Assembly: GCF_001677475.2 (NCBI RefSeq)
Contig: NZ_CP015229.1
DNA from: Escherichia coli
GTDB lineage: Bacteria; Pseudomonadota; Gammaproteobacteria; Enterobacterales; Enterobacteriaceae
Strand: one strand, 5' to 3'
Length of the DNA: 64,000 bases
The position numbers were made by a program. Positions 29,801 through 35,800 of this stretch are shown here, piece by piece. The first letter of the stretch is position 1. Every line of letters begins with the position of its first letter.

Positions 29801-32800
29801 GATATAAAAAAGGCCCGCAAAAGCGAGCCTGGTAAATAAATATGGCGCGTTGTACTGGATTCGAACCAGTGACCGATTGCTTAGAAGGCAATTGCTCTGT
29901 CCGACTGAGCTAACAACGCATGATGCAGATAATGGACCGCCATCGAGGACTTGAACCCCGCACCAACAACCCTGTTATCGTGTCGTCTGCTCTTCCTGAT
30001 GAGCTAATAGCGGTATGTTATGGTGGCCCTTGCTGGATTTGAACCAGCGACCTGGCGATTATGAGTCGCTCGCTCTCACCACTGAGCTAAAGGGCCGGGC
30101 GCAGGATAATAACGGTACGTAACTAATTCTGCAATATCATCCGTTCTGACTGACTAAATCCTGAACTTCCCTGACCGTCGAACCCGACCCCATGAAAAAA
30201 TCTGCAACCAGATCTCCCGGACGACTGCTTGCGCTGATTATCTGCTGCAACATTTCTGCCGGTTTTTCGCACGGATGTTTCCCGGGATAGTACTGCACCG
30301 GTTTATGCGTCCACACATCGGTGTACGGTACCTGCACAGTCACACCGAAATACCGCCGCAAATTTTTATATTCTCTCAGCAGTTCCGTATACTGCCGGTT
30401 CAGTTCACTGTATGTGCTGACCAGCTGGTGGTGTGGCTTTTCCAGTTCCCCGCGTTGATGTTTTTCTGCTGCAACACGCGCAAACAATGCCTGCAGTTTT
30501 CTGTAATCATCCTCGTTCGGTAACTGCCACTGACTGGTACCAAACCAGTGCGACACCATGTTTTTCTTTCCGGTGGCTTCCGCTATCTGTTTTGACGTTA
30601 TTCCCAGTGATTCACGCGCATCACGAAAGTAAGAAATCAGCGGGGCCATGACGTGCTGTTTTAGCTCGCGCCCCTTTGCCGCATAGCCGTCATTTTTGGG
30701 CTGGTATGGCCCCTGATAATGTTCTGCAAACAGAATGCGTTCTGTCGCCGGGAAATACGCCCGCAGGCTTTCCTTGCTGCACCCGTTCCAGCGCCCGGAC
30801 GGCTTCGCCCAGATAATGTGATTCAGCACATTAAAGCGTTCACGCATCATGATTTCGATATCAGATGCCAGGCGATGACCACAGAACAGGTAAAGACTTC
30901 CGGCGGGCTTTAATACCCGCCAGAACTGCGCCAGACACTGGCCCAGCCATTTCAGGTAATCATCGTCGCCCTTCCACTGGTTATCCCAGCCCTCGGGCTT
31001 CACTTTAAAGTATGGCGGGTCTGTGACTATCAGGTCGACAGAGTTTTCCGGTAAGGCCTGGATAAATTCCAGGCAATCAGCGTTGATTAATTCACAACTG
31101 GATATTTTTACAGTATCAACCATAGATCAATAAGCACTTCTCTGATAGGCTCATTCCGCTTTTGCGCAAAGCTGATGGGCCTGAGGTTTGCTTGTGACCT
31201 CAACGCATGAGCAAATGGCTGGCAGGTGCCGCTAACACCCACCAGCCGCCCATTACCACAAATTAAAAAACCTTCACTGCGGAAGGCGTCTGTAACAACC
31301 GAACTGATAATCTGCCAGACCCGCCATAACAAGCTGGGTCAGTATTAACTGGCAACGTTCGTGTGAAAGGTAAGTATTCTGCGCAATCTCCCCGACGGTC
31401 GCCGGTTCGGTGACGCTTAATTCATTAAATACCACTCTGGCGGTTTCGGTCATATCTTGCTGTTTTAGCATGTCTTTTCCCTTTTCCGGTTAACGTGACA
31501 TACCAATAACTCTTGTCGAAAAAGCCAGCAAGCTGAAAGACCAGTATTCGCAACCACCAGCGCGTTTAACGTCCCGTGCCGCTTTCCGGGCACAAAAAAA
31601 ACCGCTCAGCGCGGGTTTAAGCTGTGTGGCAAAGTAACCACTCTTAACACATTACAATAACTTTTGCGTACGCGTTAGCTCTTTTGTATATTTAACTTTT
31701 CTCTAATTCTAAAGGTAAAAGGTAACGACTAGTGAAAGCGAACGACTACCTGTTTGGTCTTCAGGCAAGAAACATCTCTTTCAGGCTTCTTCAAGGCGAA
31801 TTAAAGTATTTTAATATGAAGTCAGCTAGGGGGTGGACAGAGTTGCTATCTGATTATGCAAGTAATAATGAAAAGGATATAATAAATAATCTCAAGGAGA
31901 TTTACCTCAGCCAATTGAATTACAGCAATCGGGCCGTATTTTTTGCTCAACTGAATAATATCACTGACGCAATCCTCTTGAAAAAAACCTTGTTAAATCT
32001 GATTAACAGCAACGATAAAGATTATCAAGAATACATTGCCACCTACCCATTGCCAATAGATAGCGCAACACATAAAAAAGTCAAAAAATTAAGACCAGTC
32101 TGCATCTCCCACTCTCAACATGGTAACTCGATCACTATTACAACAACTTATCTTCGTCCATTCAAAGAAAGAAGTGCAATTGAAACAAATACACTAAGCC
32201 CAGCAACACAAAAAGAACTCAATTGTTTTGATGAAATAATTGGAATAAAAGATAGATACATCCAATGTTTTGACACAATTACTTTTAACTATGTTTCCGG
32301 CGAAATAACATTTGAAATCGACATGTGTACAAATCTTAACCATAATGAATTGGAGCGCGCATCAACAAGATATCGTAGAATATTAATGTACCTTTTCCAT
32401 AAAGAGAATTCATATCACGTCGCCTTCATTAGAAAAAATATATTTACTGCTATCGATAAACTTTACAAATCTGCCGATGGTACCATTTTAAAACTTGGGC
32501 ATGCCACAGGAACAGGCTCAGTAAAAGAAGAAAAAATGAGAAAGAGAAAAGATGATTTAAGGAAGGAAAAATATCATGCCGCAGGCTTAGCGGCAATTGG
32601 AGGAAAAACTAATAACTTTAGTATTTCTAAACAATGGAATGGAGCACACAATAACATTTTAACAATGCATGTACCCGGACATTTTTCTTTAATTTCATCC
32701 TCGCTACCATTTATAAATCATGTTATAATCGAAGGGTGTGTTTGTAAATCAGATTATGAGTTATTGATGTCAAAGGTTTTCTAAATGAATAAGCAGGAAA

Positions 32801-35800
32801 TGAAAGATATCATACAACATTCTTTTGCTACCGACAGCAAAGTTGGTTTTGCATGTATGAATATTTATCATTACCTGCTTAATGAAGATCTGGATAATTT
32901 AAAATATATAACATTCAATAACTTGCAAAAAGTCAGTAATGTTGATCAAAGTATCCTTTACGAGGCAATTACTTATCTATCTGGAGAAAAAGCACCAATA
33001 TTATCAATCGGATACGAATATATTGATGGTGATGACATTTTTGAAATCTCTCAAGATGAGTTAAGCAAAATATATTCAGAAGGAACATTTTATTTCGATG
33101 GCAAACCAGTCCTCAATTGGCAGTCGAAAGTTTACATTTACTTTTATGCATCAGAGTTCTGGAAAGGCCTAGAATGATGGATAATCAGAATAATTTTACG
33201 TTAGAATCGCTGAAGTTCGCAGCGTCATTCGATGAGAGCGCAGCACGCCTTTACCGAAGAATTACATGCAATTCATACGATAAATTTATTGAAATGTTTT
33301 ATATTGACTTAGAAAAAACAATCAGATTGATTGAAAAAAATGCAAGCTTAATGCAAAACGATGGAGAAGACCGTTTATCTATAGAAATAATTAATATACT
33401 AATTGGCTTCGGATATGATTCTGGTCATGATAATTATATAAATGGGCACTCAGACATTGTTGTAAGTTTCAAAAACTACACATGGATTGGAGAGGCTAAA
33501 ATTCATAGCTCATACGACTATTTAATGGAAGGATTCCATCAATTATGCTCTCGTTACTCCACAGGAAGTGAAGATGATTGTCAAGGAGGATTAATAATTT
33601 ATGTGAAAAGCAACAATGCATTAGATGTCGTAGAGAAATGGAAAAAAACATTAACCTCTAAAAAAGATGACTTTGAAGATTTTTATTTATCCGATTGCAA
33701 AACAAGAGAAAAGTTGAGCTTTTACTCTAGCCACAAACACCCTAAATCTGGATTACCATACAAAGTAAGACATTTCGCTGTAATATTGGGATTTGCACCT
33801 AAAGACAAAAGTGCGAGAACAGCAAAGTCCAGAAAATAATAAGTTTTATTATCTGGACCAAGGCTGTTTTTATCTATTTAGAATACACATAATACCATCA
33901 ATAAATCCAAGTGCAGTTTGCAACTCCTTTCTAATAGTTCCATCCGAGCATTTCCGCTTCTTTGCGATTGTACGGAGTGAAATCCCGATAACAAAGTGAG
34001 CAATGATCAGCTCATATTCTTCTGGTTTATATTTCCGCAACCGGGCCACACATCCATCAATCATAATTCCTTCATCATCATCGCACTGGAGACGTGACTT
34101 TTTACCGTGTGGTAGAAGCCCCTTGAAACCAGCCGCTATCGGCTGCCAGTCGACACCACTATTTTCTGCTGCAGCCCAAGCCCCCCAACGATCTAAAGCT
34201 TCGTACATATCACGCATCAGCGCAGTACCTCCTGCACCAGTTTTTCAAACTTTCCAACTTTGGTTTCCAGCTCCGCCACACAATCCACCAGCTCATCCAC
34301 TGCTTTTTGTGCGCGATGTTTCGCCTGCATCAGTTCCCTGAGCGCTGGTACCATATCCCGACGAATGGCATCTTTTGTTACACCTGTTTTTTCCAGTTGT
34401 TCCGCCTGCCGCAACATTTCCTGTGCCTGTTTACGTAATTGCTCAGGGGTAAAAGTCATTGTCTGGTTGTTCAAAAGAAACGCTCCATCTTACTGCTGTC
34501 AGTTCGTTTGTTACTGTACCTGCGCGGCTTGGACGGCTGCATTGGTGTGGAAAGAACCAGCGCACTTTCCTGGTCTACGGGCAGAAAATGTCCGTTATAA
34601 AAACGCCGGTAAATCGTTCCCAGAGAACCGTTACGTTGTTTCGTGATATTGATTTCCGCGATACCTCTGGCCTGCGTATCCGGGTTGTACACTTCATCCC
34701 TGTAAAGCATCAGAATGATGTCTGCATCAGCTTCTATTTCTCCGGAATTTTTCAGGTCTGAGTTCATAGGTCGTTTATTGGGTCTGGACTCAACTCCACG
34801 GGAAAGTTGGCTCAGCGCAATAACCGGTAATCCACCGGATTTTGCCAGGCCTTTAAGCCCTTTTGATATTTCCCCCACGGCAAGGTCATGACGGCCTGTG
34901 GATCGGGTTTTTATCAGCCCGAGATAATCAACCACCACCAGCGCCGTTTCCGGATGTTTAATCAGGTGGTGTTTCGTTGTTGCGCATATCTCGTCAATGG
35001 TCAGGTTCGCCTGGTCCACCATCCAGATATTGCGTCCGGTCATCAGCTCCACCCCCTTAATGAAACGCGCCCAGTCTTCGTCACCAAAGTGAGAGACAGA
35101 TTTCAGGCGTGATACCGGCATTCCTCCAGCCGCAGATACCATGCGTTCACCAATCTGGATGTTCGCCATTTCCATTGTGAACAGAAGAACACCATGCCCC
35201 TGCTCAGTCACCTTGTCGATGATATCCAGCGCCAGTTCTGTTTTCCCCATCGAAGGGCGAGCCGCGATGAATATCAGGTCGCCAGGCTCCATGCCGCCTG
35301 TTTTTGCGTCCAGTTCATCAATACCGGTCATCAACGTCCTGGATTTCTCCAGCCCCTTATTCCGGCATTCAACACGCTCAACCACCTCGGGAAGCACATC
35401 ATCAATATGTACCGGCTGAATAATGCCCTTTTCCGTCGACAATGAGGCCATCATGTTTTGCGCATCCTTCATGGCATCTTCAGCTGCTTCACAGGTATGC
35501 GCATCGCGTAATTTCTGCAATGCCTCATTCAGTATTTTTTCTGCATCACGCAGTGCAGCATTACGTCGCAGTGCTGCAACATAATGTTCCAGAGATGACT
35601 TCACCCAGGTTTTACGCCCGGAATCAGTAATCACCGGGGCAAGTTCCGGCATCTCATTACACAACAGCACAGGGTCAATCACGCCTGAAACACGGGCCTG
35701 TCGGCAGATGCCTGTGTAGATATCCCGATACGCTCGTACAGAAAAAACGTCTGCCGGCAATGTGGCCAGAATATCCATCACTTCATGATCAGCCCCGCGC

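Follow-up and report, generated by a model that had tools for sequence, protein, structure and literature searches.

What is an AT-rich, three-gene operon doing between the antiterminator gene Q and the late region of a Shiga toxin (Stx) prophage, on the strand opposite to the phage genes around it? The locus lies in a 64,000-nt stretch of Escherichia coli DNA (assembly GCF_001677475.2, contig NZ_CP015229.1), hereafter the window, to which all coordinates refer and which is a lambdoid prophage of the Stx2e type. A preliminary description had proposed that the three genes, here called the trio, form a novel defence or abortive-infection module. We favour, with a probability of roughly 0.6, the reading that the trio is a self-contained, horizontally mobile, nuclease-based anti-phage (phage-exclusion) module, whose mechanism we infer from the folds, catalytic motif, conservation, natural fusions, genomic slot and neighbouring defence systems computed in this analysis. 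The trio and its Q-proximal flank are laid out as follows.

31732-32784, plus strand: gene 1, 350 amino acids (aa), GTG start, isoelectric point (pI) 9.2, modelled as an RdgC/RexA-fold protein, proposed DNA-binding sensor
32785-33177, plus strand: gene 2, 130 aa, pI 4.5, modelled as an acidic winged helix with a small C-terminal β element, proposed nuclease adaptor or restrainer
33174-33839, plus strand: gene 3, 221 aa, modelled as a BamHI-like PD-(D/E)xK nuclease with a basic C-terminal tail, proposed effector
33840-33869: the 30 bp that separate the convergent genes 3 and Q, in which a scan recognised no intrinsic terminator
33870-34217, minus strand: antiterminator Q, 115 aa, PF06530 type, convergent with the trio

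The coordinates and lengths of the three plus-strand open reading frames (ORFs) match those first described, as do the junctions between them: TAAATG at 32782-32787 joins genes 1 and 2, and genes 2 and 3 overlap by ATGA at 33174-33177, the 221-aa frame of gene 3 being counted from the ATG at 33174. We accept the GTG as the genuine start of gene 1, since the 27 N-terminal residues after it are kept in distant homologs. The 3′ end of the trio was also correctly placed 30 bp from the Q stop (gene 3 ends at 33839 and Q at 33870). Its orientation against all flanking phage genes is borne out by the annotation of a prophage from the pig E. coli cq9, which is 99.9% identical over the query; there RefSeq lists the trio as three plus-strand hypothetical proteins, and all annotated genes flanking them are on the opposite strand. 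The reported AT-richness is equally evident, with a G+C content of 0.336 for the trio overall versus 0.503 for the remaining window, and a range of 0.31-0.35 versus 0.45-0.53 in the flanks.

At the level of sequence, the trio belongs to no named family. None of the three proteins has a Pfam match even at E ≤ 10, NCBIfam returned only noise, and the best matches in PADLOC-DB 2.0 (2023) were to a CARF model and to PDC-S54, at E values of 0.007-0.009. PHROGs assigns the proteins to three families of unknown function. The PADLOC search leaves the trio outside every system modelled there, in line with the preliminary description, which could not place it in a named system, and where sequence profiles name none of the proteins, structure models place all three. 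A literature search by accessions, by PHROG identifiers, or by RdgC-like combined with defense found no mention of them. In DefensePredictor, a machine-learning study from 2026, gene 2 (WP_001041173.1) is listed as a “predicted novel defense gene” with a log-odds of 6.28 in Table S10, which spans 1041 E. coli protein clusters with that label; gene 2 is not among the 118 units tested there (PMC13092281). The accessions of the trio are absent from Tables S6-S8 of that study, which cover the validated systems DS-1 to DS-42, and gene 2 occurs only in S10 (PMC13092281). A defence role has therefore been predicted independently, via gene 2 only, while the fold assignments, modular fusions and hotspot anatomy presented below appear to be new here.

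Gene 3 contains the motifs GEDRLSIEI and GHSDIVVSF…WIGEAKIH, in which a PD-(D/E)xK-like nuclease arrangement had been recognised. Residues E65, D66, D94, E107, K109, Q123, R127 and Y128 are invariant in a 32-sequence alignment, and a confident structure model depicts a BamHI-like PD-(D/E)xK nuclease with the αβββαβ core fold and an invariant E…D…ExK. The catalytic residues fall on the canonical helix and strands of this core, with the acid E65/D66 in the core helix, D94 at the start of β2, and E107-A-K109 in β3. Model and alignment together show gene 3 to be a member of the PD-(D/E)xK superfamily by fold and motif and a predicted DNA cutter. The Pfam models that it fails to match even at E ≤ 10 include BamHI (PF02923) and Mrr_cat, and its family profile found no match among PDB sequences. 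Gene 3 thus shares the common PD-(D/E)xK core, with canonical catalytic residues, with BamHI, BglII, BstYI and OkrAI and with Mrr and McrC, but it differs from these enzymes in having no Pfam BamHI or Mrr match and no cognate methyltransferase, in being part of a three-gene unit, and in that its domain also serves as the C-terminal effector domain of NACHT-HEAT proteins.

Genes 1 and 2 had been said to match no recognised family, which holds for every sequence library searched; the structure models now give them an RdgC/RexA fold and a winged helix, respectively. Gene 1 is modelled as a two-domain α/β protein, superposable on RdgC (the RdgC/RexA/Iml3/Chl4 fold class), with an additional N-terminal four-helix region relative to RdgC. 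Its pI of 9.2 is compatible with predicted DNA binding. Gene 1 is 9% identical to E. coli RdgC (PDB 2OWL) and has no match to Pfam RdgC (PF04381), and its profile gave chance-level matches only against PDB sequences, RdgC not among them. A profile search of 1.84 billion proteins returned 807 representatives, and among the best 150 of these 807, which are mostly ~350 aa long, RdgC proper was evidently not reached. The top 50 relatives listed from AlphaFold-DB are all uncharacterised or bear automatic domain-based names only. Gene 2 yields a confident model of an acidic winged-helix protein, which matches the winged-helix domains of NsrR (at 8.2), of GntR, MarR and Fur regulators, of ZBP1 (Zα) and of RPA32. 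Joined by a linker into a single chain, genes 2 and 3 were modelled with a predicted template-modelling score (pTM) of 0.87, a value suggestive of a defined interface, and gene 2 is predicted to pack on gene 3. All three proteins lack membrane segments, the maximum Kyte-Doolittle 19-residue mean being 1.43.

A winged-helix domain joined to a PD-(D/E)xK domain is reminiscent of Mrr, and by this analogy genes 2 and 3 might constitute a split, modification-dependent type IV (Mrr/McrBC-like) restriction system that cuts foreign-modified DNA, with gene 1 as a clamp or processivity factor. We regard this as fairly unlikely: the acidity of gene 2 (pI 4.5) is unusual in a DNA-reading winged helix, Pfam matches to Mrr_cat and Mrr_N are absent, a methyl-dependent enzyme would need to tolerate the carrier phage’s own DNA methyltransferase, encoded 600 bp away, and the NACHT-HEAT fusions of gene 3 indicate a triggered effector, not a base-reading enzyme. 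The same pair of genes could instead be read as a toxin-antitoxin or addiction module that serves to keep the prophage or island in its host, with gene 3 as toxin, gene 2 as antitoxin, gene 1 as regulator or accessory, and defence as a secondary effect. The small, acidic product of the upstream gene 2, its translational coupling to the nuclease through ATGA, and the packing predicted in the model would all suit such a pair.

The distribution of the trio bears on these proposals. At the DNA level, 22 of 5426 complete E. coli genomes carry it, as do seven Stx1a phages of O145:H28, and in each case it directly follows the same Q allele. Further afield, a pattern scan of one genome per species gave 76 loci from Gamma-, Beta- and Alphaproteobacteria, Cyanobacteria and one member of the Bacteroidota, and IMG/VR gave 55 viral loci; hidden Markov models (HMMs) were built iteratively from the ORFs of the collected loci. 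A word-indexed protein search found 35 clusters of gene 3, a small family, but was insensitive for gene 2 (2 matches), whose homologs were taken from the fetched loci with the custom HMMs. The order gene 1-2-3, on the same strand and abutting or overlapping, recurs in ~65 of the 76 genome loci and 51 of the 55 viral loci, and most of those without a full trio are interrupted by contig ends. Homologs are of similar size throughout (gene 1 ~350-400 aa, gene 2 ~130-150 aa, gene 3 ~205-240 aa). In all, the trio is intact in ~115 loci, and abutting genes in the same order across such distant taxa are found far more than chance would give. Median identities to the E. coli proteins are 25% for gene 1, 27% for gene 2 and 36% for gene 3, so the first two diverge faster than the nuclease. 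One cyanobacterial locus (L012:9357-10633) has a longer gene 2 (204 aa) with gene 3, and gene 1 was not detected upstream.

All-against-all clustering of ~1000 neighbouring ORFs from ~75 loci revealed no fourth gene that is conserved with the trio. The genes most often found nearby encode tyrosine integrases (11 loci) and type I methylase subunits (4 loci), together with DusA, a known integration site. No cognate methyltransferase is conserved with the nuclease in the ~75 loci, where methyltransferases are merely occasional neighbours. In 56 of 57 loci the trio has a lower G+C content than the DNA on either side (median difference -8.5 points), and together with the varied, integrase-rich genomic contexts this supports the separate acquisition proposed in the preliminary description. 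Residence on mobile elements with integrases would also suit an addiction module. However, the 350-aa gene 1, superfluous to a two-gene pair, is kept in nearly every locus, and the fusions of gene 2 to restriction enzymes and of gene 3 to STAND NTPases fit the logic of an immune effector better. We therefore consider a toxin-antitoxin function in its own right unlikely; it also overlaps the reading as an anti-phage module, since many such modules are themselves defence systems.

Natural fusions suggest how labour may be divided within the trio. In Rhizobium (L062:4557-9848), a type IIG/ISP restriction-methylase carries a C-terminal gene 2 domain with gene 3 immediately after it; the restriction-methylase is full-length and matches the PADLOC type IIG/ISP profile from end to end. 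In Sphingopyxis (L057:6327-9830), a C-terminal gene 2 domain is found on an HsdR-like protein, again with gene 3 immediately next, downstream of an HsdM-like gene and another ORF of 453 aa. Gene 1 is absent from both loci. That gene 3 replaces a lost nuclease domain of the HsdR-like protein was ruled out, since Pfam finds the HSDR_N nuclease region retained; gene 3 is thus an additional nuclease rather than a substitute. Several cyanobacteria encode proteins of ~1000-1200 aa in which a gene 3-type domain lies C-terminal to NACHT and HEAT repeats, and genes 1 and 2 are absent beside them. The protein at L021:6938-10552 (with others at L023, L025, L031, L033 and L036) is NLR/Avs-like, its effector being C-terminal. 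With gene 2 fused to restriction enzymes and gene 3 to NACHT-HEAT proteins, this pattern points to an effector role for gene 3 and a coupling role for gene 2, with gene 1 as one among several exchangeable front ends that engage DNA.

The association with restriction enzymes admits a further interpretation. Type I restriction-modification (RM) systems adjoin some complete trios, and type I or IIG systems are adjoining or fused in ~7 loci. With gene 3 directly downstream of HsdR-like and type IIG/ISP enzymes that bear the gene 2 domain, and with HSDR_N leaving gene 3 as an extra nuclease, genes 2 and 3 could form a PrrC-like guard, held latent on a DNA-engaging partner (gene 1 or a restriction subunit) and freed by a phage anti-restriction or DNA-mimic protein. 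Most loci, this prophage included, have no RM system nearby, which makes a guard of this kind quite unlikely. Other neighbourhoods point to defence more broadly. In Lysobacter (L004:1-15302) the order is an OLD-TOPRIM ATPase, a UvrD helicase, RosmerTA (RmrT E 1.4e-34, RmrA E 5e-120), the trio, an H-NS-like gene and a 1608-aa Rhs/YD-repeat toxin, and the OLD-TOPRIM/UvrD pair resembles Gabija. In Serratia, an MmeI-type RM enzyme, a DEAD helicase and a T5orf172 protein adjoin the trio.

The position of the trio in the prophage was resolved by comparing it with related phages, which identified the following elements at its promoter-proximal end.

31594-31677, minus strand: late promoter-terminator block (putative pR′-tR′ equivalent), near-invariant across phages with differing cargo
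31662-31677, minus strand: upstream element TAACGCGTACGCAAAA of the block, Q-allele-specific
31656-31651, minus strand: -10-like TGTAAT, candidate pR′ element
31614-31602, minus strand: hairpin CCGCGCTGAGCGG of the block
31601-31594, minus strand: T8 run of the block
31664-31692, plus strand: candidate trio promoter, back-to-back with pR′ (-35 TTGCGT at 31664-31669, 17-nt spacer, -10 TATATT at 31687-31692)

In a six-phage alignment the block reads, in the late direction (31677→31594), TAACGCGTACGCAAAA…TGTAAT…GTTAAGAGTGGTTACTTTGCCACACAGCTTAAAC, followed by a CCGC…GCGG hairpin and then T8. It includes the common initial transcribed region and is kept whatever the cargo, and positions 31602-31671 are ~87% identical to many Stx2a phages. 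In the cargo-free Stx2a phage LC567829 the block starts ~15-25 nt after the Q stop, and beyond it come the 65-aa ORF, methylase, tRNAs and stx that are also present here; in the prophage studied here the block lies 2.2 kb from Q, beyond the trio. With the block read as the pR′-tR′ unit, the trio is therefore inserted between Q and pR′, in agreement with the earlier suggestion that it holds the slot where the late promoter normally follows Q. Only the upstream element of the block differs between the trio phage and the cargo-free Stx2a phage, as expected for a putative Q-allele-specific binding site. This 16-mer, TAACGCGTACGCAAAA, occurs once in the window, contains the perfect palindrome GCGTACGC (31666-31673, minus strand), and is invariant among phages with this Q type, with TAGTGCGGTCCGCAAAAAG in its place in Stx2a phages carrying another Q allele; it is probably the Q-binding element. 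The terminator call rests on the hairpin, the T8 run and their conservation, because shuffled sequences fold just as stably as the RNA of the initial late transcript (z -0.12). A weak candidate for pR′ in the 30-bp spacer (TAGATA-17-GATAAT), which would read antisense through the trio, was rejected in favour of the conserved block at 31594-31677, which is common to phages with differing cargo and adjoins Q in the cargo-free phage. On the other side, related Q alleles lose their homology 25 nt short of the 3′ end of Q, which marks the second edge of the variable slot. In 14 enterobacterial viral loci, diverged trios included, the next gene downstream of gene 3 is Q.

The pattern TTGCGT-17 nt-TAnnnT is found on the cargo strand in 8 of 8 distinct contexts, among them DUF262 and ParB-like cargo and diverged trios. 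We infer that it is the cargo promoter, with TTGCGT lying inside the block; the copy upstream of the trio scores 8/12 and was missed by a consensus promoter scan. Related prophages carry other genes in the same slot and on the same strand: a PD-λ-5_A homolog (E 4e-74), accompanied by a Dam methylase next to Q; an NsnA/PD-T4-2_A-like DUF262 protein (E 5.6e-46; PD-T4-2/Menshen-like) plus a HEPN protein, with a Dcm methylase; and a YejK-like nucleoid-associated protein with a 404-aa partner. Further prophages have other pairs of hypothetical proteins there. The YejK-like pair is DS-1 of DefensePredictor, which was cloned and protects E. coli (Tables S6, S8 and S11; PMC13092281). With DS-1 and genes like PD-λ-5_A and PD-T4-2_A occupying one and the same slot, the Q-to-pR′ interval (in the window, from 31594-31677 to 33840-33895) is, by sequence comparison, a hotspot of lambdoid prophages for defence genes and other cargo. 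One prophage instead has an ADP-ribosyltransferase and SubB-like toxin pair after Q on the late strand.

The scan of the spacer between gene 3 and Q recognised no intrinsic terminator, and transcripts of the trio could consequently run antisense into Q, as pR read-through could run antisense into the trio; such convergent read-through might influence both induction and the expression of Stx. With no terminator in between, transcription of the convergent trio in a lysogen might also dampen Q and, through it, induction of the Shiga toxin phage. The arrangement raises the alternative that the trio serves the life cycle of the phage itself, in the control of recombination or replication, in host-DNA degradation, or in regulation of Q and lysogeny by convergent transcription. 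RdgC is a recombination-associated protein that modulates RecA, and RexA also biases the λ switch. Yet most relatives of the phage lack the trio (22 of 5426 E. coli genomes have it, and related Q alleles occur in 337), unrelated defence genes substitute for it in the same slot, and it is also found in non-phage islands across many phyla. A life-cycle role is accordingly very unlikely.

The anti-phage reading that we favour can be set out as a sequence of steps. Transcription of the trio would start at a promoter of its own that overlaps pR′ and points away from it, so that the proteins could be made in the lysogen independently of Q. Gene 1, the basic RdgC/RexA-fold protein, would bind DNA as a sensor and recognise incoming or replicating phage DNA, for example ends or replication and recombination intermediates; alternatively, it may be triggered by a phage protein that disturbs its DNA binding. 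Gene 2 would couple the nuclease to its DNA-engaging partner and probably hold it inactive until triggered. Gene 3 would then cut DNA, either the invader’s alone or also the cell’s, the latter amounting to abortive infection, and the evidence does not distinguish between the two outcomes. The case for defence is that the slot is shared with DS-1 and with relatives of PD-λ-5 and PD-T4-2/Menshen and that the trio resides in defence islands elsewhere; on these computational grounds the initial proposal of a candidate defence module is supported.

Several points weigh against this reading. Protection, toxicity, DNA binding and cleavage rest on computation for every member of the family. No methyltransferase that might spare self DNA travels with the trio. 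The predicted contact between genes 2 and 3 comes from the single-chain linker model rather than a multimer prediction, and gene 1 is part of no joint model. The promoter is deduced from conserved spacing only, and shared backbone ancestry could explain that conservation. Lastly, PADLOC applied to 10 large neighbours from 8 sampled loci found defence genes in one locus only, so that the defence-island signal is real but not uniform.

A bolder and more tentative version of the anti-phage reading, which we think possible though doubtful, is that the trio represents an undescribed class of methylation-independent immunity. An RdgC/RexA-type clamp would sense the state of DNA, such as free ends or the replication and recombination intermediates of an invader, and license a restriction-type nuclease through a winged-helix coupler. 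The coupler-nuclease pair would be a portable plug-in, also bolted onto type I/ISP restriction motors and STAND sensors.

Among known systems, the closest analogy to how the trio would work is sensing of the RexA type coupled to an effector of the restriction type. In RexAB of λ, a DNA-related signal is thought to switch on a separate effector. RexAB is likewise prophage-encoded, RexA and gene 1 are both assigned to the RdgC/RexA/Iml3/Chl4 DNA-binding fold, and the trio is probably expressed in the lysogen; unlike RexAB, it has no polytopic membrane partner of the RexB type, the three proteins having no hydrophobic segment. In contrast to housekeeping RdgC of E. coli (PDB 2OWL), gene 1 is operon-linked to a nuclease and mobile. 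DS-1 uses the same Q-pR′ slot and opposite strand in related prophages, and its first gene, for a DNA-binding protein of the nucleoid type, precedes one for a presumed effector, an order resembling that of the trio, but the proteins are unrelated, and DS-1 comprises two experimentally tested genes where the trio comprises three genes characterised computationally. That gene 1 is itself a YejK/NA37 relative like that of DS-1 was ruled out, there being no NA37 Pfam match. Compared with Hachiman HamAB, Shedu and the Avs/STAND nucleases, the trio has neither helicase nor NTPase and no PADLOC match to any of them. The NTPase of STAND/Avs-type NLR proteins is absent from the trio, and a link between NACHT-HEAT and the gene 3 domain is seen only in the distant fusion proteins of cyanobacteria. 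From RM systems of types I-III it differs in having no conserved cognate methyltransferase.

The remaining features of the prophage around the locus are as follows.

28793-29752, minus strand: stx2eA
29843-29919, minus strand: tRNA Arg-tct, upstream of stx2e (ARAGORN)
30021-30096, minus strand: tRNA with CAT anticodon, upstream of stx2e (ARAGORN)
30137-31123, minus strand: DNA methyltransferase, 328 aa
31274-31471, minus strand: 65-aa ORF
Minus strand: DnaB- and DnaC-like replication genes

In the cq9 annotation, RefSeq places a third “tRNA-OTHER” between the Arg-tct and CAT tRNAs and names the latter Ile. The methyltransferase ORF of 328 aa compares with 352 aa (1059 nt) in cq9 and 1047 nt in a poultry strain; the size gap to the near-identical cq9 prophage is an in-frame 72 nt, as implied by the coordinates.

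The oldest phage-exclusion system known relies on RexA as its sensor, and what triggers RexA has eluded explanation for decades. If the trio protects, it would add a defence system whose sensor has the RexA fold, and its soluble nuclease read-out would ease the study of RexA-type sensing. The fusions suggest that restriction enzymes and STAND proteins can draw on genes 2 and 3 as an effector cassette open to reuse. The Q-pR′ hotspot of Stx and other lambdoid prophages, with its fixed promoter-terminator “landing pad”, may be mined for further systems, and it touches the biology of Stx phages directly, as the cargo adjoins the promoter that drives toxin expression.

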